A program made the position numbers and the translations under genes. From NCBI GenBank assembly GCA_048499675.1, contig JASNZL010000002.1, forward strand, positions 40,138-104,137: a stretch of 64,000 nucleotides of DNA, read 5' to 3'. This stretch comes from Candidatus Zambryskiibacteriota bacterium (GTDB lineage: Bacteria; Patescibacteriota; Minisyncoccia; Phycocordibacterales; WO2-35-19). The notes beneath the pieces were generated by a model. That model saw only the letters and a program-made list of their open reading frames with translations. It ran no database searches and was not told the origin of the DNA. How positions within the stretch are numbered: position 1 is the stretch's first letter; each line of letters starts with the position of its first letter. This document shows, piece after piece, positions 2,144 to 61,781 of this stretch.

Positions 2144-2749
2144 CTACTCGAGTATTCCATCCAAATTAACATCATAAAGTATTTGTTCTTGGACTAAGCG
2201 ATAATCAATCAACTCTTCATCTTTAAACCAGTGTTTTATTTCTGCATTTGCTTCTTCAACAGATCCAGAACCATGAATAAGATTTCTAACAGCTCTACCG
2301 TCTGTATCAGCCATCATATAAGAATCCAAAACGAAATCGCCTCTAATTGTGCCGACATCAGATGTTCTTGGTTCTGTGCCTCCAGTTATTTTTCTTACCA
2401 CCTCCACAGCGTGTGCCCCTTCCCAAACCATTGGTATAACAGGACCACTTGTCATATAAGTAACAAGTGAATTTAGAACTTTTTCTCCAAGCTCCAATGG
2501 ATCGTTTGAGGGTGGTTTTATACCCTTTTTTTCATACGCAGAAATAGCTTTTTCTCCAACATTTTTCTTCCAGTTAGGATCAATTGTGTAATGTTTTTCT
2601 ACATGATCTTTTGTTGGTACCACTATTTTTAAACCAACAAGTTTTAATCCGACTCTTTCATATCTTTTTATAATCTCACCAACCAAAGTCCTCTGAACTC
2701 CATCTGGCTTAATAATTACAAGTGTTCTTTCCTTTTTTGCATGTCCCAT
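2144..2749 (-). CDS. ndk: nucleoside diphosphate kinase with ~50-aa C-terminal extension
   Basis: MGHAKKERTLVIIKPDGVQRTLVGEIIKRYE..., the NDK N-terminal signature; 201 aa versus a typical ~140. Confidence 0.8.
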   Translation of the reverse strand: MGHAKKERTLVIIKPDGVQRTLVGEIIKRYERVGLKLVGLKIVVPTKDHVEKHYTIDPNWKKNVGEKAISAYEKKGIKPPSNDPLELGEKVLNSLVTYMTSGPVIPMVWEGAHAVEVVRKITGGTEPRTSDVGTIRGDFVLDSYMMADTDGRAVRNLIHGSGSVEEANAEIKHWFKDEELIDYRLVQEQILYDVNLDGILE

Positions 2750-2822
2750 TTTATTTGAAAATTGAATAATTGATAATTATTTAAAAATTTTAAATTAAAA
2801 ATTGAAAATTACAAAATCTGGC

Positions 2823-3596
2823 TTATTTCGTTAGTATCTCTATTCCAGATTTTGTTACAGCTACCGTATGCTCAAAATGCGCCGAGAGGGATTTATCACG
2901 TGTAATATAAGTATATCCATCAGAAAGTTTTTTAATATCCCTACTCCCCAAGCTAAACATTGGTTCAATTGCAATGACCATGCCGGGTCTAATTTCCGGA
3001 CCTTCACCTCTCTCTGCTTTGTTTGGTACAAAAGGATCTTCGTGAACTTCAAACCCCACTCCATGCCCAGAAAGACCTTCCACTATCCCTAAATTCCTCC
3101 TTATAGCAACTTCCATAATTGCATGCCCAATGTCCCCAATATGCCCTCCAACTCGCATCGCACTGATTCCTTTTTCTAACGCCTCTCTTGTAGCATTTAT
3201 CAAATCTCTGGCCCTGTCGTCAATTTTGCCAACAGGCACAGTAATCGCACCATCTGTAATAAGATTCTTGTGAGTTAAACCCAAATCAAGGGTTACAATA
3301 TCGCCTTCAAATAGAATTTTTCCATTGCCTTCGTTTGGAATTCCGTGGACTATTTCTTCGTTTATAGAAACACACAGAGATGCAGGGTAAGGTTTTTTTG
3401 CGTCATAAGGTTGATAACCAAAAAATGAAGCCGTGCAACCCGCCTCATCAATCAAATGTTCGGCATAATCATTTAACTCTTTAGTTTTAATCCCTGGCTT
3501 AACTTTTTTTGCGACCTCTTTCAAAATACGAGCATGTATCTTGCCCCCTTCCCTAAGTATCGCTATGTCTTCTTCTGTTTTGTACCTTATTGCCAT
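2823..3596 (-). CDS. map: methionine aminopeptidase type I
   Basis: 257 aa; pita-bread fold metal-ligand context (DIVTLDLG..., HGIGH-like HGVGFEVHE); position after adk as in the canonical operon. Confidence 0.85.
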   Translation of the reverse strand: MAIRYKTEEDIAILREGGKIHARILKEVAKKVKPGIKTKELNDYAEHLIDEAGCTASFFGYQPYDAKKPYPASLCVSINEEIVHGIPNEGNGKILFEGDIVTLDLGLTHKNLITDGAITVPVGKIDDRARDLINATREALEKGISAMRVGGHIGDIGHAIMEVAIRRNLGIVEGLSGHGVGFEVHEDPFVPNKAERGEGPEIRPGMVIAIEPMFSLGSRDIKKLSDGYTYITRDKSLSAHFEHTVAVTKSGIEILTK

Positions 3597-3600
3597 TATT

Positions 3601-4194
3601 TTATTCCAAACCCACTTTTTTCATAATTTGTTGATGAACCTCTTCTATTGAACCAGATCCATCAATAGTCAAGAATTCATAGTATGGATTATTTCTGAAA
3701 AAGTTAATTGCGGGCACAACATTTTCTTCATACCAGTTGAGTCTTTTTTCTATATCCAAATTGTTATCGTCTTCCCTTTTTCTACTAAGCAATCTTTCTG
3801 AAGCTAATTCTCTTGATAACTCAATTGAAACAACAAAAGGTTTTTCTCTTCTATAAAATTTCATTGCCGAATCCAAAACTGGTGCTTCATCAACCCTTCT
3901 AGACAGACCATCAAGAACCATATGTTCATTACCCGACGTGTGTCTAACCAAATATTCTGTCCAAATCCATATAGGCAAAAATTCTGGAATCAGTCCACCA
4001 CTTCCTATTATTTCTTTTACATATTGAGCAGTAAGAGAAGCTTCTGTAGAAAATTCTCTAAACTTTTGTCCTGTTTCTAAATAAAGCACCGGTTTTTGGG
4101 GGTCAATCTCTTTTAGTTTGTCAATTAAAAGTCTCGCTTGTGTCCCTTTACCGCATCCCGATGGCCCAAAAAATATAAATGTTTGTGGTGTCAT
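3601..4194 (-). CDS. adk: adenylate kinase
   Basis: P-loop FIFFGPSGCGKGTQ. The track ORF extends to 4254 only because it reads through an upstream 18-bp tandem repeat; the ATG at 4194 (MTPQTF) is the likely start. Confidence 0.8.
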   Translation of the reverse strand: MTPQTFIFFGPSGCGKGTQARLLIDKLKEIDPQKPVLYLETGQKFREFSTEASLTAQYVKEIIGSGGLIPEFLPIWIWTEYLVRHTSGNEHMVLDGLSRRVDEAPVLDSAMKFYRREKPFVVSIELSRELASERLLSRKREDDNNLDIEKRLNWYEENVVPAINFFRNNPYYEFLTIDGSGSIEEVHQQIMKKVGLE

Positions 4195-8584: not shown

Positions 8585-8850
8585 TACTCCAAGGTATCAA
8601 ATATAATAAAATAAGTCAACCCAGTAGTGAATTTTGGCATTGGACTCCATCCGCGCATTGTATGCGATGCCAAAATCTACTACTGGGTCAATCCCCGCTC
8701 ACCAATTTTGGTATTATTGCGAGACAATCTTTTTCTTTGTTTTTAGTGTTCGGTTTTGATGACAAATTTAATAGCGAGTAAGTTATTGATGTTGCAATAT
8801 ATAAAATACCAAAATTTGTGGCATGGGTATACCCACTCACTAATCTTTGC
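8585..8850 (-). repeat. structured ~270-bp repeat in the sense leader of the rpsZ operon; inverted copy of 55188-55560
   Basis: The reverse complement aligns (~80-85% by eye) with 55188-55560, including gtgagYgg..cccatgccacMaattttggtat, ..cgaacactMRaaacaaagaaaa.., aataccaaaattRgtgagcggggattgaccc and the gtagtRRattttggcat..atgccaaaatYYactac hairpin. Confidence 0.75.
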
Positions 8851-18380: not shown

Positions 18381-18727
18381 CACGACACCAATACGCGAAT
18401 TGGCACGAATGACACGAATATAGAGTTAGAAAGTTAAAAAGTTAAAAGTTTATAAAGTAACCCGCCAATCGTATAAAAGCTTAACTAAAATTCTAAATAC
18501 TAAATCCGAAATCCGACTTGTCCCGCCGAAGCTTTAGCGAAGGGGGAAACAAACTCTTAAATCCTAAATACAAAATCTTTAAATTTTAGATTTTGTTATT
18601 TGTGTATTGTTTGTAATTTGGATACTGTAATTTGGTATTTTAAAAATTATTATATTAGTAATTAGTGGGTTAAAATTAAGAATTACCCACCAATCTTACA
18701 AATAGAGAAATAAAATTTTATTTTATG

Positions 18728-18752
18728 AAACAAAAATTAGTGTGCGGGTAGG
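18728..18752. repeat. 25-bp direct repeat carrying the tRNA-Gly(UCC) 3-prime end plus 15 nt downstream (partner at 19039-19063)
   Basis: aaacaaaaattagtgtgcgggtagg occurs twice, flanking the GIY-YIG remnant; the 18728-18775 copy is also a long palindrome. Confidence 0.8.
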
Positions 18753-19038
18753 CCCGTACACTAAATTTTGTTTCGGAAAAGTTTTATTGCACTAGATATT
18801 CTTTTTAGGAGCTGACACCTAGCTTGGCCTCGAAGCTTTAGACTTGATTCTCTAGATCTTGCTTCATTATCTACACTGTAGGCTTCATAATATAGAAGTT
18901 TGAGAGGTATTCTAGATTTAGTTGATAAAACTTTTCCAGAATTATGTTCTCCTAACAGCTTCTTTAGATTATTAGTGGAGCCAATATACAAATCTCCATC
19001 CTTGAGACTTCCAAGTAATATACATAGAGCATAATTTA
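18753..19038 (-). pseudogene. degenerate GIY-YIG (YhbQ/UPF0213-like) nuclease gene lacking a start codon
   Basis: Reads ...YALCILLGSLKDGDLYIGSTNNLKKLLGEHNSGK..., homologous to the intact copy at 56633-56887 (FYVYVLKSFKDSELYIGSTNNLKRRFEEHQKG); no in-frame ATG, and a TTG start loses the GIY motif. Confidence 0.55.
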
Positions 19039-19053
19039 AAACAAAAATTAGTG

Positions 19054-19124
19054 TGCGGGTAGGGGTAATCGAAACCCCGACTCAAGTTTGGAAAACTCGC
19101 ATTTTACCACTAAACTATACCCGC
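19054..19124 (-). tRNA. tRNA-Gly (anticodon TCC)
   Basis: Reverse complement GCGGGTA-TA-GTTT-AGTGGTA-AAAT-G-CGAGT-TTTCCAA-ACTTG-AGTC-GGGGT-TTCGATT-ACCCC-TACCCGC-A. Confidence 0.8.
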
Positions 19125-19265
19125 ATTTAGACTATTCTAACACAATATTCTTTTATTCAAAATAATCACAAATATAGAAATTGAGATTATATTTCGGCTC
19201 GCGATTTGATTTTTTATTGCTTTTTTATGTGGTATATGTTATAATAAGATAAGGAGGTAGTACCT

Positions 19266-29882: not shown

Positions 29883-30152
29883 TTAGCTTTTTTTGAGGCC
29901 TAACTTTTTGACTAACGAGTTGTATCTTTTTGGATCCTTTTTCTCCAAATACTTCATATGAGCTTTTCTGTCTGCAACTAGCCCCAAAAGGCCTCTTCTT
30001 GAGTGTTTATCTTTTTTATTTTTCTTTAGGTGTGTTGAAAGATCGTCTATTCTTCTTGATAGAACGGCAATTTGCACTTCAGGACTACCTGTATCTTTGT
30101 CGTGAACAGCCACATCCTTTATAATTCTTTGTTTTTTGTTTTTTGTTAACAT
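29883..30152 (-). CDS. rpsO: 30S ribosomal protein S15
   Basis: TGSPEVQIAVLSRRIDDLSTHLKKNKKDKHSRRGLL. Confidence 0.9.
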   Translation of the reverse strand: MLTKNKKQRIIKDVAVHDKDTGSPEVQIAVLSRRIDDLSTHLKKNKKDKHSRRGLLGLVADRKAHMKYLEKKDPKRYNSLVKKLGLKKS

Positions 30153-30479
30153 ATACGAATTAACGAATTTAATAACGAATTGCTACCCGCCCGAAATACT
30201 ATCGTATATAAATGGCGGGCGGGCGAAAACTTTCACATATTAAGTATATCACAATCCCCATTTTTTAGCAAACCCCGTTAGAGATTTTATTTAGATATTT
30301 AGCGGATTAACTATATTTAGAGTCATATTTCCTGCTAATAACAAAAAACGAGAGAATTTAAATCTCTAACGGGACAATCCAAACTTTTAATAAGCGAAGA
30401 GACTATAAAAATTAGGGAAGCTGAGGTAATCCGAAGTGTATTAATTTCCCTTATTTTGAGCCATTTTCTTTCATTTTGC

Positions 30480-30508
30480 TTGACTTTTATATTGAATGGG
30501 TGTATAAT
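30480..30508 (+). promoter_or_regulatory. consensus sigma70 promoter: TTGACT, 17-bp spacer, TATAAT
   Basis: ttgact at 30480-30485 and tataat at 30503-30508 with an exact 17-bp spacer; 23 nt upstream of the first GC-rich cassette gene. Confidence 0.6.
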
Positions 30509-30530
30509 ATATGTAGATAGGTTAACCCCT

Positions 30531-31475
30531 ATGTACAAGCGGTTGGTAGCCCCAACCCTACTTGAAAATCACATACTGGCAACCCCAGAAGAAAGAAAAG
30601 TGAAAATGCCTACCACGATTATGATCGAGAATGGTCCGAAGTTGCAGATGGAAGTTGCAGAGGATTGCGTTGTATTCGCAGGTCGCTGCATCTGCCACCA
30701 GATCAACAAAAACGCCGAGGTCATGATTCAGAAAGCGAAGGCTGCCGGAAAGACCAAAATCGTTATCGTTGGTGACTGCGACGAGCACAACGGAAGAGAA
30801 GGCGAGATGTTGCAAGTGATGTCGGCAGCCGGCATAGAGTGCAAGTGGCTCTATGAAGAGACTTGCTTCTTGCGAGAGGTAATGCCCAACTTCTCACAAA
30901 CTGGCATCCGTCGGTTTGCGGAAGCCGAGGATTTCAGAAAGTTGCGAAACTTGCTCGACAAGATCGGTCGCCGAGTGTGGGACATCAAGCAGAAAATCAA
31001 GCACGAATCCACACTCCTCGCCGAGTACCCAGTGGTCGCGCAGGTTCAAGCAATTGAATCTCACGACCACAACTTCGAGTACGCAGCGGGTGAAGGGACG
31101 ATAGTGTTCAACGCACTTTTCGGCCATCGTGCGAACACTCTTGTCTCTGAAGTGAACTCGGTCGTTTTGTTCAATCTGGAAAACAAAACCGGATTGATCG
31201 TGACCAAGTCGCAGAGGTTCGATTTCTCCTTTGCTAATCCCGATGATTTCGAACTGAACATCTTTCAAGGCAAGGGTAAGAGTCAATTGGAGAGAAAAGG
31301 GTACACACGCGAAGGCTGTGGTTCCATCCGGGTGAATGTGGGTAAGGGCTCAACCGAGCTTTCCATCTACTGCAATCCTGGCGTGTGGACTGTGAAGCCC
31401 CACCCCGAACTCGACGTTACTGACCCAGACGTTCATTACGTCCCCATGTGGAAACGCGTGGAGAAGGTCAAGTAG
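30531..31475 (+). CDS. GC-rich hypothetical protein (foreign composition)
   Basis: ~52% GC against a ~33% background; start placed at the first ATG downstream of the promoter (MYKRLVAPTLL), since the track ORF start at 30456 lies upstream of the -35 box. Confidence 0.5.
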   Translation: MYKRLVAPTLLENHILATPEERKVKMPTTIMIENGPKLQMEVAEDCVVFAGRCICHQINKNAEVMIQKAKAAGKTKIVIVGDCDEHNGREGEMLQVMSAAGIECKWLYEETCFLREVMPNFSQTGIRRFAEAEDFRKLRNLLDKIGRRVWDIKQKIKHESTLLAEYPVVAQVQAIESHDHNFEYAAGEGTIVFNALFGHRANTLVSEVNSVVLFNLENKTGLIVTKSQRFDFSFANPDDFELNIFQGKGKSQLERKGYTREGCGSIRVNVGKGSTELSIYCNPGVWTVKPHPELDVTDPDVHYVPMWKRVEKVK

Positions 31476-31638
31476 CCCGCCAGTATAAAATCCGGTGACG
31501 AGCCGGTGTCCAACTTCGGTTGGGCTTCTACCAAAGTTTTTTAAAAAGAAAATTTTGGTGGGAGTAATCACACAAGCAAGAATACTTACCGTGTGAAAAA
31601 CCAAATTGGGATAGTTCTATTTGGAAAGGAGAAAAGAC

Positions 31639-32055
31639 ATGCCGACCTGGTTGGATATGTTGAGTATTGAAATGGAGAACATGGACGCGACCAAGTTAAT
31701 CGAACCGCCTCACGAGGTGGATCCCAGCCGCGACCACGTTGTTTGCAAAGCCGAAGAAGCTCTTTGCAAGTTGTACAGCTTGGCTATGCAGTTTGAGAAA
31801 GAAGCCAACGTAGCGTTGATTAACGCTCGCTACTCCGGTAATCTCAACGAAATCAAGGATGCCCTTGAAAACGGTGCTCGGCTCATGAAGAAAGTGGAGA
31901 CCCTTCGGGAGATTTTTTGGATCTCCCTGAAGGATAACCACGATCTATGGAACAAGCCTTCCGTCGGCATCCGTCGGGGTTGGAAGGTGGTCTGGAGCGA
32001 TTCGGATCCGATGCCCGATATCCGGGACATCATCAGTGGACTTTTCGGACGCTGA
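31639..32055 (+). CDS. GC-rich hypothetical protein
   Basis: SD ggaaaggag 8 nt upstream of ATG (MPTWLDML...); 139 aa. Confidence 0.5.
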   Translation: MPTWLDMLSIEMENMDATKLIEPPHEVDPSRDHVVCKAEEALCKLYSLAMQFEKEANVALINARYSGNLNEIKDALENGARLMKKVETLREIFWISLKDNHDLWNKPSVGIRRGWKVVWSDSDPMPDIRDIISGLFGR

Positions 32056-36141: not shown

Positions 36142-36181
36142 AGACAACTTTTTTTATGTGCTAAAATAATTTTATGAATCC

Positions 36182-36251
36182 GGTAGTGAATTTTGGCAAT
36201 AATTCCTACGGAATTGGTTAATTAATTAACATTGCCAAAATCTACTACTGG
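36182..36251 (+). repeat. third copy of the gtagtgaattttggca..tgccaaaatctactac hairpin, abutting the start codon of the Fic gene
   Basis: ccggtagtgaattttggcaat-N29-attgccaaaatctactactgg; the same hairpin occurs at 8614-8680 and 55480-55556. Confidence 0.7.
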
Positions 36252-37256
36252 ATGAAAAACGAACACAACAAATTACAAAGTATTGTCATTTATAAAGACA
36301 AGAAAGGTAATGTTGAACTAAAAACCGATATTCAAAAAGAAACAATTTGGGCAACTCAGGACCAGATTGCTTTTCTTTTTGGTACAAAAAGGCCGGCAAT
36401 TACAAAGCACTTACAAAACATCTTTAAATCAAACGAATTAAATAAGAATTCAGTTAGTTCCATTTTGGAACATACTGCAAGCGACGGAAAGAAATACAAA
36501 ACCCAATTCTACAACTTGGACGCGATGATTGCTGTTGGATATAGAGTAAACTCAAAAAGAGCTACTCAATTTCGTATCTGGGCAACCAAAACGTTGAGAG
36601 ATTACATAATCAAAGGTGTTGCTATAAATACCGAAAGAATAAAAAAATTGCATGAAGCAGGACTCAAAGATTTGCAAAACAAAATTGAATTTATTCAAAA
36701 CACTATTCAAAAAAGAGAACTGGATAAAGACGAGATCCAGAGTCTTTTGTCTGTCATAAAGGATTATGCAAACTCCTGGACCACTCTCAAAGAATATGAC
36801 GAGGGTGATATTGTAATCAAAAAAAGCAAAAACAAAGAGAGAAAAATTTTTGATTATGAATTTGCCCGTAAAGCAATCGATGAATTAAAAATAAACCTTG
36901 TTAACAAAAAAGAAGCGGGTGATTTGTTTGGTAACGAAAGAGATGAAACATTCAAAGGCATTCTAAAAACAATTTATCAAACATTTGACAGCAAAGAGCT
37001 ATACGCGAGCTTAGAAGAAAAAGCTTCTCATTTGTTGTATTTTATAATCAAAGACCATCCGTTTTCTGATGGAAACAAAAGGGTTGGTTCTCTTTTGTTC
37101 ATTTTATTTCTAGAAAGAAATAATATTTTACTTAGAAAAAATGGGGAAAGAAAAATAAACGACAATACTCTTGTTGCCCTTGCCCTCTTGGTTGCCGAAA
37201 GCAATCCTAATGAAAAAGAAACAATGACTGCTTTAATTACAAACCTTTTGATTTAA
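36252..37256 (+). CDS. RhuM-family N-terminal domain plus Fic/Doc domain protein
   Basis: YNLDAMIAVGYRVNSKRATQFRIWATKTLRDY (RhuM-like) and a C-terminal Fic motif HPFSDGNKRVGS. Confidence 0.75.
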   Translation: MKNEHNKLQSIVIYKDKKGNVELKTDIQKETIWATQDQIAFLFGTKRPAITKHLQNIFKSNELNKNSVSSILEHTASDGKKYKTQFYNLDAMIAVGYRVNSKRATQFRIWATKTLRDYIIKGVAINTERIKKLHEAGLKDLQNKIEFIQNTIQKRELDKDEIQSLLSVIKDYANSWTTLKEYDEGDIVIKKSKNKERKIFDYEFARKAIDELKINLVNKKEAGDLFGNERDETFKGILKTIYQTFDSKELYASLEEKASHLLYFIIKDHPFSDGNKRVGSLLFILFLERNNILLRKNGERKINDNTLVALALLVAESNPNEKETMTALITNLLI

Positions 37257-55187: not shown

Positions 55188-55560
55188 CTTGTGAGCGGGC
55201 CTGCCCATGCCACCAATTTTGGTATCTTAAATATTGCAACATATATAACTCGCTAGTTATGGGATAGGTCACCAATATCGAACACTCGAAACAAAGAAAA
55301 GGGTCGTATTGCAATAATACCAAAATTAGTGAGCGTGCCTGCCCATGCCACCAATTTTGGTATCTTCTTGTAGAAACACCAAGGAGAGTATTGATTTGGG
55401 TATATCGCCAGATCCAATGTGGCGCAATGTTTTAATATGTAATCTTTCTACAATACCAAAATTAGTGAGCGGGGATTGACCCGTAGTGAATTTTGGCATT
55501 GGTTATAAACCATGCACTTCGTGCCATGCCAAAATCTACTACGGGGTTGCTTTTTTCTCC
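55188..55560 (+). repeat. structured repeat in the rpsL leader (partner of 8585-8850) with an internal ~135-bp tandem duplication and a terminal hairpin plus T tract
   Basis: Two gtgagcgNgcctgcccatgccaccaattttggtatctt modules (55190 and 55323), then aataccaaaattagtgagcggggattgacccgtagtgaattttggcat...atgccaaaatctactacggggttgcttttttc. Confidence 0.75.
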
Positions 55561-56084: not shown

Positions 56085-56555
56085 ATGAGAGGAAAAGTAA
56101 AAAACAGAAACATAGTAAAGCCAGACATAATGTTCAACTCTACAAAAGTTGAGAAGTTTATTAACTACATTATGGAAAGGGGAAAGAAAAATACTGCAAG
56201 AAAAATAGTATACGGTTCTTTTGATTACATAAAAACAAAAGAAAAAGTAGAAGACCCAATGGAAGTGTTCGATACCGCCCTTAAAAATGCAGGGCCAACA
56301 GTAGAAGTTAGATCAAAGAGAGTGGGTGGTGCAAACTACCAAGTACCAAGAGAAGTAAGACCCGAAAGACGAGCTTATCTATCAATGAAATGGATTATAG
56401 ACTCAGCTAAAGCCAAAAAAGGCAAACCAATGCACGAAAGACTGGGGGATGAAATAATACTGGCAAGCAAAAACGAAGGCGAGGCAATCAAAAAAAGAGA
56501 AAACGTTCACAAAATGGCAGAAGCCAACAAAGCATTTGCCCACTTTGCTTGGTAA
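56085..56555 (+). CDS. rpsG: 30S ribosomal protein S7
   Basis: 156 aa, ...RVGGANYQVP...KRENVHKMAEANKAFAHFAW. Confidence 0.9.
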   Translation: MRGKVKNRNIVKPDIMFNSTKVEKFINYIMERGKKNTARKIVYGSFDYIKTKEKVEDPMEVFDTALKNAGPTVEVRSKRVGGANYQVPREVRPERRAYLSMKWIIDSAKAKKGKPMHERLGDEIILASKNEGEAIKKRENVHKMAEANKAFAHFAW

Positions 56556-56632
56556 ACCCGCACACTCAACAATTGTGATGTGCTTTCAGCACATGCCTAC
56601 GGCATCACAATTTTGAGTGTACAGGTAAACAC

Positions 56633-56887
56633 TTACCCCAAACTTCCTTCTATTCGTTCTTTCAAAAACCTTCTAGCATTTCCTCTCAATTTTAGTGCTT
56701 GCTCTCTGAGGCGAGCATCTTTTTCACTTTTGTATGCTTCATAGTATACTAATTCAAACGGTCTCCTAAATTGAGTAGAAAAAGATAACCCCTTTTGATG
56801 TTCTTCAAATCTTCTTTTAAGGTTATTTGTACTGCCTATGTATAATTCAGAATCTTTAAAACTTTTTAATACATAAACGTAAAACAT
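56633..56887 (-). CDS. GIY-YIG nuclease family protein (YhbQ/UPF0213-like), intact copy
   Basis: MFYVYVLKSFKDSELYIGSTNNLKRRFEEHQKG...; lies antisense between rpsG and fusA. Confidence 0.75.
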   Translation of the reverse strand: MFYVYVLKSFKDSELYIGSTNNLKRRFEEHQKGLSFSTQFRRPFELVYYEAYKSEKDARLREQALKLRGNARRFLKERIEGSLG

Positions 56888-57067: not shown

Positions 57068-59221
57068 ATGAACAGAGACTATCCATTAGATAAAGTAAGA
57101 AACTTTGGTATCATCGCGCACATTGACGCTGGAAAAACAACAACTTCGGAGCGTATTTTATATTACACAGGAAGTCAGCACAAAATAGGGGAAGTTCATG
57201 AAGGCGAAACAACAACAGACTGGATGGAACAAGAGAGAGAAAGAGGCATCACAATTACAGCGGCGGCAATTACTTGTTTTTGGGGACCAACTTATCTCTC
57301 GCCCGAAGAAAGAAACAAAAAAGAAAACAAATTTAGATTTAATATTATTGACACCCCAGGTCACATTGACTTCACTGCAGAAGTAAAAAGATCTATGAGA
57401 GTTTTGGATGGTGCCGTTTGTGTTTTTGATGGAGTAGCTGGTGTTGAACCACAGTCAGAAACAAACTGGAGATACGCTGAAGAAGCAAATGTTCCAAGAC
57501 TTTGTTTTATAAACAAACTAGACAGAATAGGAGCAAACTTTGAAAAATCCTACAAATCAATTTTAGATAGACTTTCCAAAAAAGCGGTGCGAATGCAAGT
57601 ACCTTTAGGAGAAGAGGATAAACACGAAGGTGTTGTTGATTTGCTCCAAATGAAAGCTTTTGATTTTGAAGGCAAGCTCGGTGACAATGTTATCGAAGTG
57701 GCTTTTCCTGAAAATCTAAGAGCAGATGCAGAAAAATACAGAGCAGAATTAATTGAAAAAATAGTAGAAAATGATGAAGAGTTGATGAACAAATATCTTG
57801 CCGGAGAAGAAATTCCTCTTACTGATTTGAAAAAAACACTAAGAAAGGCGGTGATTGAAAACAAAATATTCCCAGTATTTTGCGGTTCTGCTCTAAAAAA
57901 TAAAGGGGTGCAGTTGGTGCTTGATGCTGTTGTTGATTATCTACCAAGTCCACTTGATATCCCAGCCATAAAAGGTACAGATCCAAAAACAGGCGAAGAA
58001 ATTGAGAGACATCCATCTGATGAGGAACCATTCTCAGCCCTTGCTTTCAAACTACAAGCAGACCCATTTGTTGGACAACTAACTTTCTTTAGAGTTTATT
58101 CTGGAACAATAGAATCCGGTTCATATATATATAATGCAAACACAGGAGACAAAGAAAGACTGGGAAGAATCGTAAGACTTCAAGCTGATAAGAGGGAAGA
58201 GGTGAAAAAAGTTTATGCTGGAGAAATCGCTGCGGCTGTTGGGTTAAAAGATGCAAAAACTTCACACACATTTTGTGACGAAAATAATCCAATATTACTT
58301 GAAGAAATTGTATTTCCAGAACCAGTTATTTCTCTTAGAATTGAACCGAAAACTAAAGCTGACCAAGAAAAAATGGGGCTTGCTCTTAAACGACTTTCTG
58401 ACGAAGACCCAACATTTAGAATTAAATCGGATTCTGAAACCGGAGAAACTGTTATTTCTGGAATGGGTGAACTTCACTTGGATATCATCGTTGACAGAAT
58501 GAAGAGAGAATTCAATGTAGAAGCAAATGTTGGCGCGCCTCAAGTGGCTTACAAAGAAACAATCACTGGTACCGCTGAAGCAGAAACAAAATACATCAAG
58601 CAAACAGGAGGTAAGGGTCAGTACGGTCACGTCAAACTTAACATCAAACCATTACAACCAGAAGAGGAGGGTGCCAAGAAACAGAAAAACGTACACAGAG
58701 AAGATGGTTTTGAATTTATTGATTCTATCAAAGGTGGTGTCATTCCTTCAGAGTTTATTCCAGCAGTTGAAAAAGGTGTAAAAGAAGCAATGGAAAGAGG
58801 AATTGTGGCTGGATACAAGATGACGGATATTTCTTGTGAACTAACTTTTGGTTCATATCACGATGTTGACTCTTCAGAAATTGCATACAAAATCGCGGCT
58901 TCACAAGCTTTCCAGGAAGCAGCCAAAAAAGCAAACCCAGTTATTCTTGAACCAATAATGAAAGTTGAAGTAGTTGTTCCAGAAAAATTCATGGGTGATG
59001 TGACGGGTTACCTATCATCAAAGAGAGGTTTGATAGAAGGAATGGATGATAGGGCAGGCAACAAAGTTGTCAAAGCAAAAGTGCCTCTTTCTGAACTATT
59101 CGGATATGTTACCACCCTCAGATCTATGACAGAAGGCAGGGGAAACGCCAACATTGAATTTGATCACTACGCAATTGTCCCACCAAATGTCGCCATGGCG
59201 ATAGCAGAAAGCAGAAAGTAA
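57068..59221 (+). CDS. fusA: elongation factor G
   Basis: [33 protein letters not shown], domains II-V. Confidence 0.9.
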
Positions 59222-59675: not shown

Positions 59676-61781
59676 ATGATAAGTAAAAAATATTCGGTTC
59701 CATCAAATGGAAGCACTTTAGTAGCTGAATTTAACGATTTGGCAGAAAATGCGCATGGTTCGGTTATGTTGAAACTTGGGGACACCACTGTTTTTGCAAC
59801 AGCAGTTATGTCCAAAGGTGAAAAAGATTTGGATTATTTTCCTCTTTCTGTTGAGTACGAGGAAAGATTTTATGCAGCAGGACAAATATTAGGTAGCAGA
59901 TTTATGAGACGCGAAGGTAGACCATCAGACGAGGCAATTCTTTCTGGAAGAATAGTAGACAGAACAATTCGCCCATTATTTGATAGTGACCTTCGAAACG
60001 AAATTCAAGTTGTTGTTACTATACTTTCATTGGATGAATACGATCCAGATGTTTTGGGAGTTATAGCTTCTTCTTTGGCACTTGGTGTTTCAAAAATCCC
60101 TTGGAATGGACCAGTGAGTGCTGTAAGAATTGGAAAGAATAAAGGTAGTGACGATTTCTTGATTAATCCAACATACCTACAAAGACAAGATGAAAATTAT
60201 GAACTTGATTTGATAGCTTGTGGCAAAGACGGAACAATCAATATGATTGAGGTTGGAAGTAGTGAAGTTTCAGAAGATGTTTTGATGAAAGCTTTGGAAA
60301 AAGCAAAGGAGGAGCTAGAAAAACTACAAAAGTTCCAAGAAGATATCATAAAAGAAATCGGCCAGAAGAAAGTAGCGGTAAACAAAAAAGAAGTTCCTGA
60401 AATTCTAAAAAAATCTTTCCAAGAAAAAGTTTTGTCAAAAATTGAAAGCGTTTTGGGAGAAGCGGGGAAAGCGAGAATTTATGAACTTGAAGAAGAGTGG
60501 ATGGTTTTTGTTGAAACAGAAATGCCTGAAATGGATAAAAGAATTGCACGAAAACTTTACCACGAAGCAATAAATGAATTAATTCACAAAAAAGCTATTG
60601 AGGAAAATACCAGATTTGATGGTAGAGGTTTTGATGATTTGAGAAATCTTTATGCAAAAGCTGGGGGGATTTCAGAAATCTTACACGGATCAGGTATTTT
60701 TTATAGAGGAGGAACTCACATTTTTTCAGCTCTTACTCTAGGAGCCCCGGGAGATTCTCAGGTAATAGACGGCATGGAAACACAAACCAACAAAAGATTT
60801 ATGCACCACTATAATTTCCCACCTTTCTCTGTTGGAGAAACAGGTAGAATTGGTGGATTAAACAGAAGAATGGTAGGCCATGGCGCCCTCGCTGAAAAAG
60901 CCTTAATTCCTGTTTTGCCAAGTAAAGAAAATTTTCCTTACACAATTAGAATTGTATCAGAAGCACTCGCCTCAAACGGCTCAACATCTATGGGTTCAGT
61001 TTGTGCAAGCACTTTAGCCTTGATGGACGCTGGTGTTCCAATAACAAAACCAGTTGGTGGAATCGCGTCCGGTTTGATGATGGAGGGTGATAAATATAAA
61101 GTTCTCACAGACATACAAGGACCAGAAGACGAACATGGTGATATGGACTTCAAAGTTGCAGGTACCAGAGATGGAGTAACAGCAGTCCAGATGGATGTAA
61201 AAGTGGACGGTATTCCTCTACCTATTCTCAAAGAAGCTTTTGAAAAAGCAAAGTCAGCAAGAATAAAAATAATTGAAAGAATAGAAGAAGAAATAAAAGA
61301 ACCAAGACCGGAATTGTCACCAAAGGCTCCGAGAATTATAGCAATTAAAATAAAACCAGAACAAATAGGTATGGTTATAGGAACAGGTGGTAAGGTAATA
61401 AATGAAATCAAAGACTTGACTGGAGCTGAGATAGATATAGAAGAAGATGGAACAGTGTTTATTACTGGCGAAGCAGAAGGGGCAGAAAAAGCAAAGGGGC
61501 TTATAGAAGACATTGTAAGAGAATACAAACAAGGCGAAAGATTTGAAGGCGAAGTAATTAGAGTAGCTGACTTTGGTGCCATAGTTAAACTAGGCAGAAA
61601 CGGAGAGGGAATGGTTCATGTATCTGAAATCGCACCCTTTAGAGTGGAAAAAACAGAGGATTATCTAAAGCTCGGAATGAAAGTTCCTGTTATAATAAAA
61701 GGGGTAGACGACAAAGGAAGGCTTAAACTTTCTATCAAGGAATCTGATCCAAATTTTTTCCAAAAACCGAAACCACAGTAA
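59676..61781 (+). CDS. pnp: polynucleotide phosphorylase
   Basis: Two RNase PH-like domains, a KH domain (IGMVIGTGGKVINEI) and an S1 domain (GEVIRVADFGAIVKL). Confidence 0.9.
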   Translation: MISKKYSVPSNGSTLVAEFNDLAENAHGSVMLKLGDTTVFATAVMSKGEKDLDYFPLSVEYEERFYAAGQILGSRFMRREGRPSDEAILSGRIVDRTIRPLFDSDLRNEIQVVVTILSLDEYDPDVLGVIASSLALGVSKIPWNGPVSAVRIGKNKGSDDFLINPTYLQRQDENYELDLIACGKDGTINMIEVGSSEVSEDVLMKALEKAKEELEKLQKFQEDIIKEIGQKKVAVNKKEVPEILKKSFQEKVLSKIESVLGEAGKARIYELEEEWMVFVETEMPEMDKRIARKLYHEAINELIHKKAIEENTRFDGRGFDDLRNLYAKAGGISEILHGSGIFYRGGTHIFSALTLGAPGDSQVIDGMETQTNKRFMHHYNFPPFSVGETGRIGGLNRRMVGHGALAEKALIPVLPSKENFPYTIRIVSEALASNGSTSMGSVCASTLALMDAGVPITKPVGGIASGLMMEGDKYKVLTDIQGPEDEHGDMDFKVAGTRDGVTAVQMDVKVDGIPLPILKEAFEKAKSARIKIIERIEEEIKEPRPELSPKAPRIIAIKIKPEQIGMVIGTGGKVINEIKDLTGAEIDIEEDGTVFITGEAEGAEKAKGLIEDIVREYKQGERFEGEVIRVADFGAIVKLGRNGEGMVHVSEIAPFRVEKTEDYLKLGMKVPVIIKGVDDKGRLKLSIKESDPNFFQKPKPQ

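Follow-up and report, generated by a model that had tools for sequence, protein, structure and literature searches.

The window analyzed here, a 64,000-nt stretch of DNA from a Candidatus Zambryskiibacteriota bacterium (contig JASNZL010000002.1, positions 40,138 to 104,137 of the forward strand), contains two genes for small proteins that consist of little more than a GIY-YIG nuclease domain. One of these, a pseudogene, lies next to a tRNA-Gly(UCC) gene and fills an element of about 300 bp that is bounded by inverted repeats. The other is an intact gene of 84 codons between rpsG and fusA, beside a palindromic module that shares the end sequence of the element and holds no open reading frame (ORF). 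We argue that the two loci probably represent two states of a single system, made up of a GIY-YIG nuclease and hairpin modules: a mobile element, now decayed, at the tRNA gene, and a fixed paralog between rpsG and fusA. The tRNA locus comprises the following features (coordinates are those of the window; loci fetched from relatives are given as L numbers).

19054-19124, minus strand: intact tRNA-Gly(UCC) gene (ARAGORN; Rfam RF00005, 67.7 bits)
19054-19059, minus strand: last 6 nt of this tRNA gene, CCCGCA, supplied by the end of the inserted element
18753-19059, minus strand: decayed GIY-YIG-bearing element of 307 bp, bounded by inverted repeats (terminal repeats of 21 nt, 90%)
19039-19059, minus strand: left (tRNA-proximal) terminal inverted repeat, CCCGCACACTAATTTTTGTTT on the gene strand, ending 5 nt before the ATG
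18753-18773, minus strand: right terminal inverted repeat, AAACAAAATTTAGTGTACGGG on the gene strand, which includes the TAG stop codon of the gene (18761-18763)
18761-19033, minus strand: GIY-YIG pseudogene of the 90-aa subfamily (ATG at 19031-19033, stop codon at 18761-18763)
19060-19063, minus strand: first copy of the target-site duplication, CCTA on the tRNA strand, forming the end of the T stem
18749-18752, minus strand: second copy of the target-site duplication, CCTA on the tRNA strand
18728-18748, minus strand: solo left terminal inverted repeat, which together with the adjacent CCTA forms the first copy of a 25-bp direct repeat

The direct repeat, AAACAAAAATTAGTGTGCGGGTAGG, is exact over 25 nt, with copies at 18728-18752 and 19039-19063 (spacing 311 nt), and consists of the last 10 nt of tRNA-Gly(UCC) and 15 nt of its trailer, as an earlier, preliminary description of this DNA had recognized. 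The tRNA gene shares 98.8% identity over 80 nt with the tRNA at the orthologous locus of L179. When inverted repeats are scanned for with the element ends as anchors, the element is recovered with identical flanks of 4 nt (TAGG/TAGG). From this arrangement, the element evidently inserted at CCTA|CCCGCA, which is the junction between the T stem and the 3' strand of the acceptor stem, and CCTA was duplicated. Because the left end of the element itself starts with CCCGCA, the tRNA-Gly gene would have been rebuilt after the insertion. The 25-bp repeat can accordingly be split into the 4-bp duplication and a 21-nt left end that we take to be left over from a neighboring copy, since such elements often insert beside existing left ends, and nested or tandem analogs occur in L100 and L101.

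The solo left end (18728-18748) pairs with the right repeat of the element (18753-18773) in a hairpin of 21-28 bp (the inverted-repeat partner extends up to 18753-18780), with the sequence TGTGCGGG-CCTA-CCCGCACA, which folds at -25.6/-30.7 kcal/mol (folded as DNA and as RNA, z about -7). At 18737-18764 (+), this junction of right repeat and solo left end also scores like an intrinsic terminator on the recG strand, with a stem of 12 bp and a T-rich tail. The spacer between recG and the element (18381-18727, 347 nt) is of low complexity and repetitive (cacgaat, ctaaatactaaatccgaaatccga, and tgtaatttgg twice), and a 31-nt piece of it is 93.5% conserved in L179.

The preliminary description had also seen a GIY-YIG homolog between the two repeats, and this is borne out both by the Pfam match of the repaired reading frame (PF01541, 46.2 bits, E 6e-12; cutoff 22.6) and by its 51-54% identity to the intact 84-aa gene (tblastn E 4e-23). 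The homolog had been called start-less; an ATG is present at 19031-19033, however, and what has been lost is instead a single nucleotide (at about 19018/19019, past codon 5), so that the reading frame is shifted. The start reads MLYVYYL, compared with MFYVYIL in the family. Arg26, which is at least 90% conserved among 43 relatives, is replaced by Leu, and we judge the copy to be inactive because of this substitution; the tRNA-side copy is evidently a dead mobile element. After repair, the gene encodes 90 aa and retrieves intact 90-aa proteins at 63-78% identity. Since the 20 nt that follow the tRNA hold no promoter of the gene's own, we infer that the 90-aa genes may be expressed by read-through from the tRNA.

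Twelve copies of the 90-aa subfamily were compared: the copy in the window and those in L010, L012, L015, L020-L023, L099, L100, L101 and L148. Eleven of these lie at the 3' terminus of a tRNA-Gly gene or at a duplicate of this terminus; the one in L012 occupies the D-loop of a tRNA-Gly copy that is itself broken. Seven relatives adjoin an annotated tRNA-Gly directly, and in these the ATG follows 20-21 nt past the tRNA end. The anticodons UCC, CCC and GCC are all represented among the host tRNA genes, and the protein-coding neighbors are different each time. One metagenome-assembled genome (MAG) carries two copies at two tRNA-Gly isoacceptors, with a mutual identity of only 68%, and no clustering of the proteins by the anticodon of the neighboring tRNA was seen among the eight short proteins compared. 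The architecture is common to all 12 copies, and that of the window element recurs, at 308 bp, in L010, L012, L015, L020-L023, L099 and L100. On the gene strand, it reads as the tRNA ending in CCTA, then CCCGCACACTAAATTTYGTTT, the ATG and the ORF, then AAACRAAAATTAG and TGTGCGGG, a second CCTA, and finally CCCGCA with the trailer of the host; the terminal inverted repeats are 21-26 nt long, and the stop codon falls within the right one. In L020, TCCA is duplicated rather than CCTA, and the tRNA of this locus also has TCCA. One third of the copies (4/12) are pseudogenes, namely those in the window, L023, L101 (start lost) and L148 (truncated). The copy in L023 has an in-frame TGA (1153-1155) at the codon for the conserved Gly33, which is GGA in its paralog L021 from the same MAG, and we read this TGA as a nonsense mutation. 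No relative of the 90-aa family was found in viral contigs by two peptide patterns, and a metagenome scan contained few extra members of the subfamily among the matches listed.

Relative to its sister genomes, the window has evidently gained the element at this locus. The nearest genomes by RecG, L179 (87% identity) and L180 (74%), keep the order recG - tRNA-Gly(UCC) - (ORF137/RNHCP) - PGK, and the GIY gene is absent from the recG - tRNA-Gly(UCC) - PGK locus of both. In addition, the sequence that follows the element in L010, CGTA CCCGCA CAATAAGGAACG, agrees with the element-free tRNA trailer in L179, CCCGCA CAATAAAGAACGG (at greater length, CGTA CCCGCA CAATAAGGAACGAAGTG in L010 and CCCGCA CAATAAAGAACGGAGTG in L179), so that the two can be compared as the filled and the empty state of CCTA|CCCGCA. 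The segment with tRNA-Gly(UCC) (window 19048-19127; L179 8479-8558; L180 8237-8314) is inverted in the window only: the tRNA runs in the same direction as recG in L179 and L180, and in the window the tRNA and the element are inverted together, with the recG and PGK sides collinear.

To place the element within a wider family, inverted-repeat pairs starting with CCCGCACAC (one mismatch allowed) were scanned for across the fetched loci. This yielded 75 end-anchored units, of which 46 are 270-330 bp long and contain a GIY ORF, while 29 are 24-269 bp long and contain no ORF. Identical direct flanks of 4 nt were found for 37 of the 75 units, compared with 4.8 expected (2000 flank permutations, maximum 13), and the flanks of 18 further units agree at 3 of 4 positions. 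The duplicated 4-mers are of 14 different sequences, most of them outside tRNA genes, and a wider anchor gave 57 units with a perfect 4-nt duplication. In a sample of 148 small GIY ORFs, assessed independently of the end anchor used for the 75 units, 92 lie between inverted repeats that reach 14 nt or more, in units of 277-356 bp. All 46 ORF-sized units carry the GIY gene only, and the inverted repeats incorporate both its stop codon and its 5' leader. The fetched loci, about 780 kb in total, yielded no longer unit that combines matching ends with a transposase; the one large pair of inverted repeats among them encodes a serine recombinase that is unrelated. The units thus have the terminal inverted repeats, the fixed-length target duplication at many sites and the orthologous empty site of insertion sequences and miniature inverted-repeat transposable elements (MITEs), while the only ORF of the element is a GIY-YIG domain and belongs to none of the known transposase classes (DDE, HUH, serine, tyrosine).

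Many insertions adjoin the remnant of another left end or a short GGG-NNNN-CCC hairpin, and in L100 and L101 the ORF-bearing unit is separated from the tRNA by an ORF-less one, and both units have a CCTA duplication of their own. Other subfamilies follow the same logic at other tRNA genes (Trp, Leu/Val, Ser, Ala). In L094 (about 2420-2830) and L096 (about 2430-2810), an intact tRNA (tRNA-Trp and tRNA-Pro, respectively) follows the GIY ORF, and a duplicate of its 5' half, reaching to the anticodon loop, precedes the ORF; in L096, the ATGTTTTGG of the ORF is the anticodon-stem sequence of the tRNA itself. In L149 (about 2430-2870), the ORF lies inside a split tRNA. In L167 (2405-2821), a small GIY-YIG ORF lies between two near-identical tRNA-Glu genes with the anticodons UUC and CUC, and its final codons and stop fall in the 5' part of the second of these, which suggests a whole-tRNA duplication linked to insertion and followed by an anticodon change. 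The family of small GIY proteins as a whole comprises 867 clusters at 50% identity (E <= 1e-10).

The second locus of the window, in the operon that contains rpsL, rpsG and fusA, comprises the following features.

56633-56887, minus strand: intact 84-aa single-domain GIY-YIG gene, antisense between rpsG (56085-56555) and fusA (57068-59221), downstream of rpsL
56557-56625, no strand assigned: 69-nt ORF-less palindromic module directly after the rpsG stop codon, with the ends CCCGCACAC and GTGTACAGG
56553-56556, plus strand: TAAA, left duplication copy, which includes the rpsG stop codon TAA (56553-56555)
56626-56629, plus strand: TAAA, right duplication copy around the 69-nt module

The placement of the intact gene is as previously described. 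Its protein matches PF01541 over residues 1-71 (60.3 bits, E 2e-16; cutoff 22.6) and has the catalytic residues Y3/Y5, Y16-I-G, R26, H30 and E50, in columns that show either no variation or at least 90% conservation among 43 relatives. Relatives at 80-93% identity are numerous in metagenomes of Patescibacteria/Paceibacterota, and proteins at least 80% identical are encoded antisense between rpsG and fusA in every fetched contig with enough flank, that is, in 10 lineages other than that of the window, which are not alike in the genes that lie past rpsL. Across the same genomes, identity to the window is 80-89% for the nuclease, 65-83% for S7 and 70-90% for EF-G, and the mean synonymous third-position identity over all pairs is 0.59 for the nuclease and 0.50 for rpsG, which is near saturation (the fusA columns of this comparison are unusable for most pairs because of indels). 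Considering that synonymous sites are near saturation, the high identity of the nuclease points to purifying selection on an old resident, and a recent horizontal spread of the gene was rejected on the same grounds. None of the copies between rpsG and fusA is a pseudogene, and none is bracketed by inverted repeats of its own. We therefore regard the rpsG-fusA copy as an old, fixed gene under selection and as an immobilized paralog of the element genes. The preliminary description had proposed one mobile cassette for both loci, and had named conservation at the same syntenic position across distant relatives as the sign of old, fixed genes. For the rpsG-fusA copy, this conservation is what was found, and mobility had to be given up for it; for the tRNA-Gly copy, the proposal stood, given its inverted repeats, its 4-bp duplication, its relatives at three isoacceptors and the empty sites. 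In the window, fusA is followed by the gene for polynucleotide phosphorylase (pnp, 59676-61781). In the classical str operon, tuf comes after fusA.

The module beside this gene links the two loci through its ends. Its right end can also be written GTGTRCRGG, and the end sequence shared across the system is CCC(G/C)CACAC. The 10-mer AGTGTGCGGG, which had been described as att-like, is indeed present at 56557-56566 (-); it is the tip of an inverted repeat, however, and not the att core of an integrase. With one mismatch allowed, this 10-mer occurs at 6 sites in the window, compared with 0.78 expected, and 4 of these are at the two GIY loci. At all orthologous rpsG-fusA loci, a unit with these ends occupies the corresponding position, with interiors of 69 to 202 nt and with TTTA/TTTA or TCTA/TCTA as flanks on the gene strand, and in L025 and L028 such modules are found on both sides of the GIY gene. 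Eight units of 69-71 nt share a Y-shaped fold, a three-way junction with a basal stem of 19 bp and two hairpins of 5 bp. Their consensus has 29 pairs, with 97.8% of cells paired and 16 pairs showing compensatory double changes; covariation is 0.53, compared with 0.19 in shuffles (0/500) and at most 0.13 after sliding of the partners. The hairpins matched no Rfam family at either gathering or E-value thresholds, and at 56450-56750 the matches were limited to sub-threshold ones to miRNA hairpins.

Among described systems, the closest is the Ssn family, whose members, about 94 aa long and composed of a GIY-YIG domain alone, cleave single-stranded DNA beside a hairpin repeat called NTS/SRM (Chenal et al. 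2025, PMC11893778). Most Ssn genes are flanked by this repeat, and the layout NTS-ssnA-NTS was called IS-like by the authors (PMC11893778). The likeness extends to the domain standing alone (about 90-100 aa expected for Ssn proteins (cd10448), 84 and 90 aa here, and about 85-97 aa over both systems), to the hairpin-forming inverted repeats around the gene, to the occurrence of ORF-less copies of the hairpins elsewhere, and to placement within conserved operons, since an Azospirillum ssn gene lies between sufB and sufC just as the gene described here lies between rpsG and fusA. The hairpin repeats of the present system are of its own kind, 21 bp long around the 90-aa gene and in the form of the 69-nt module beside the 84-aa gene. 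As a proxy for membership, we used homology to two alphaproteobacterial proteins that are the best relatives of the 84-aa protein in a plasmid database. Both of their genes have exact matches to the SRM pattern, HGTCWYN(0-2)YYVSBRHN(0-5)WNVSBRGN(0-2)RNCYNB, on both sides, with 4-5 copies around each. The window family shares 38-39% core identity with these SRM-flanked proteins (hhalign 98.3%, E 2e-14), with UPF0213 about equally distant. In L181 (1079-1587, from plasmid AZO_p3 of Azospirillum lipoferum 4B), the Ssn-type gene between sufB and sufC encodes 97 aa and has inverted SRM pairs on each side. The differences concern the cognate motif, here the ends CCC(G/C)CACAC that enclose an ORF or two small hairpins; the C-terminal tails (KLRGQAR..ELFRNEN here, KKWNRDWK..NPDW in Ssn); and the copy number, which appears low in the window (4 end-motif sites at two GIY loci). 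Target duplications, empty sites, tRNA targeting and Patescibacteria are not reported for Ssn (PMC11893778). On this comparison of sequences, the present system is best filed as a variant of the Ssn-type association of nuclease and hairpin.

Other systems share parts of the pattern. REP/BIME-RAYT and IS200/IS605 likewise combine a small gene flanked by inverted palindromes with scattered or clustered ORF-less palindromes, new copies arise beside old ones, and a domesticated single-copy enzyme has been proposed to tend the repeats. Their enzyme is an HUH Y1 tyrosine transposase acting on single-stranded DNA hairpins, however, and not a hydrolytic GIY-YIG protein; IS200/IS605 elements are moreover inserted without a target duplication, compared with 4 bp here, and the present units are half the size of IS200. 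Free-standing GIY-YIG homing endonucleases (T4 Seg, I-TevI) have the same catalytic fold and are likewise selfish genes in conserved regions, with tRNA association and cycles of gain and decay; the GIY-YIG Seg endonucleases of T4, such as SegB, act in a tRNA gene cluster (PMC2330249). These proteins exceed 200 aa, include a DNA-binding domain and move by break repair without inverted ends or duplications, whereas the present ones have 84-90 aa and both of these marks. In bacteria of the Candidate Phyla Radiation (CPR), GIY-YIG ORFs occur in non-intron insertions of rRNA genes (Tsurumaki et al. 2024, PMC11270868), which means that the bacterial group, the protein superfamily and non-intron insertion into stable-RNA genes are all shared. 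That study covers rRNA only and reports no inverted repeats, target duplications or tRNA sites, and it judged the GIY-YIG ORFs to be outside spread by homing (PMC11270868). UPF0213 proteins (YhbQ/BH0048-like) resemble ours in having a single domain within about 100 aa, and they provide the nearest sequence matches in the PDB, which are weak and limited to the core (1zg2, E 3e-5; 1ywl, E 5e-3); they differ in being housekeeping proteins, of unknown role, for which no flanking repeats are reported. Among NCBIfam models nothing scored above cutoff (TIGR01453 23.5 bits against 56.05, at model positions 4-37 only). A group I intron was rejected, as tRNA was the only Rfam family found in the window and the 307-bp unit is filled by its ORF. 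In the literature, our coverage of which is incomplete, we found no description of bacterial GIY-YIG elements that are associated with tRNA genes or bounded by inverted repeats and a duplication.

Under the interpretation we prefer, in which a GIY-YIG nuclease and its hairpin modules form one system with a mobile and a fixed state, the nuclease would, by analogy with the Ssn family, recognize the stem of the element ends, or the Y-shaped module, in single-stranded DNA and would cut at the base of this stem. Replication and repair by the host could then finish excision and insertion, and the fixed copy between rpsG and fusA may act as a resident nuclease for the ORF-less modules of the genome. 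We infer that the GIY-YIG protein is the agent of movement, and its substrate and chemistry likewise. Several points weigh against this interpretation, the case for which is built wholly on comparative sequence analysis. GIY-YIG enzymes hydrolyze DNA and cannot join strands, which leaves the 4-bp duplication unexplained, and we know of no transposon with inverted repeats and target duplications that uses a GIY-YIG enzyme. Half of the elements have no perfect duplication. Within the inverted repeats, the outermost 5-8 nt covary with the sequence that flanks each locus (TCCGCA in L021, CTCGCA in L023, GGAGG at tRNA-Ser), which simple cut-and-paste movement does not predict. The SRM pattern is absent from the 64-kb window, and the loci of relatives (782 kb) contain it 4 times. 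Because homology to the GIY protein was the basis on which loci were fetched, they are a biased sample, with the genome itself covered by 64 kb, and the frameshift in the pseudogene could be an assembly error.

The main rival is that the units are MITE-like and non-autonomous and are moved in trans by a conventional transposase, with the GIY-YIG gene as cargo or as a selfish or defensive passenger. Inverted ends with a fixed 4-bp duplication are a hallmark of DDE transposition, the established inability of GIY-YIG nucleases to transfer strands is accommodated, and ORF-less units with the same ends are common (29/75). A passenger would not, however, be expected from all 46 ORF-sized units holding the GIY gene only, with its stop codon and leader inside the repeats, nor did the roughly 780 kb of fetched loci, a small and biased sample, contain a transposase unit with these ends; we consider this explanation unlikely, although it deserves to be taken seriously. 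A free-standing homing endonuclease cassette would cut empty tRNA-Gly or rpsG-fusA alleles and be copied into them during repair of the double-strand break; the repeated tRNA end would provide an att-like or homologous segment, and homing-endonuclease-like behavior is also what the preliminary description had suggested. Insertion specific for tRNA-Gly genes of three anticodons, which share their acceptor and T arms, would fit this, as would the precedent of the T4 Seg enzymes, and the pseudogenes (4/12) and empty sites agree with a cycle of invasion, decay and loss. The proteins are bare catalytic domains without a DNA-binding domain (cf. the TIGR01453 score of 23.5 against a cutoff of 56), though, and homing leaves neither inverted ends nor target duplications, yet duplications of 14 different 4-mers are found here, mostly outside tRNA genes. 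As the rpsG-fusA copy is moreover fixed and old, we regard homing as improbable.

More improbable still is that nothing at these loci is mobile, and that a housekeeping nuclease is co-transcribed with tRNA-Gly, the inverted repeats being RNA elements (a terminator, a translational control element or a tRNA-like processing signal) and the direct repeat a local duplication. The constant distance of about 20 nt between the tRNA and the ATG, the terminator-like hairpin at 18737-18764 on the plus strand, the position of the Y-shaped module between convergent genes and the strong purifying selection on the rpsG-fusA gene are in line with such an arrangement. It is at odds with identical 4-nt flanks far above chance, with the absence of the gene from the same locus of the two nearest relatives, with the existence of nested and tandem copies, with the unrelated neighborhoods, and with one third of the tRNA-Gly copies being pseudogenes. 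Least probable of all, to the point of being negligible, is the remnant of an integrase island or prophage in the 3' end of tRNA-Gly, with the 25-bp repeat as attL and attR. Such islands are classically recognized by a direct repeat that takes in a tRNA 3' end; here, however, the interval is 286 bp without an integrase or the remnant of one, the repeat splits into a 4-bp duplication and a copy of the inverted repeat, and the 308-bp unit recurs intact elsewhere.

A bolder version of the nuclease-and-hairpin interpretation is conceivable, though we hold it to be rather doubtful as a whole: the units of about 300 bp might be the smallest autonomous DNA transposons known, moved by an 84-90-aa GIY-YIG nuclease that reads the hairpin of its own ends in single-stranded DNA. 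Such elements would prefer tRNA genes and their own ends, rebuild the tRNA, leave Y-shaped ORF-less derivatives, and occasionally duplicate whole tRNA genes, with a change of anticodon possible (L167), and the rpsG-fusA gene would be a domesticated master copy. If the interpretation of one system in two states is correct, Ssn-type nucleases would gain a selfish-element context (inverted ends, target duplications, empty sites, and decay versus domestication) that was only suggested in the original paper. Elements of about 300 bp would then colonize the tRNA genes and the str operon of ultra-small bacteria (Patescibacteria), where they are easily mis-annotated as housekeeping "GIY-YIG family proteins". 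They would also suggest one route to duplicated tRNA gene ends, halves or whole genes, and would provide many natural pairs of nuclease and hairpin with new specificities for single-stranded DNA tools. For the window itself, the tRNA-side copy would be a dead element, and the rpsG-fusA copy a conserved gene worth testing.

Some further features of the window and its relatives are recorded here. The GC content at 30001-32000 of the window is 0.45, compared with about 0.35 elsewhere, and no Rfam family was found there. A second palindrome family has three copies in the window (8619-8688, 36178-36253 and 55480-55545), in units of 66-76 nt whose arms are GTAGTGAATTTTGGCA and the reverse complement of GTAGTAGATTTTGGCA, with a 2-nt asymmetry that is identical in all three. 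Each copy folds into a Y shape, with a basal stem and two small hairpins, as do the CCCGCACAC modules; two of the three have direct flanks of 4 nt (TCAA, TGAA), and among the 183 fetched loci the family occurs only in L183, which is from the same species. This family could be another substrate of the resident nuclease. Finally, L179 contains at 2680-3723 an ORF of 347 aa with a faint LAGLIDADG match that ends inside a tRNA-Ser(GCU) gene (3686-3773), possibly a further case of a selfish nuclease associated with a tRNA gene.

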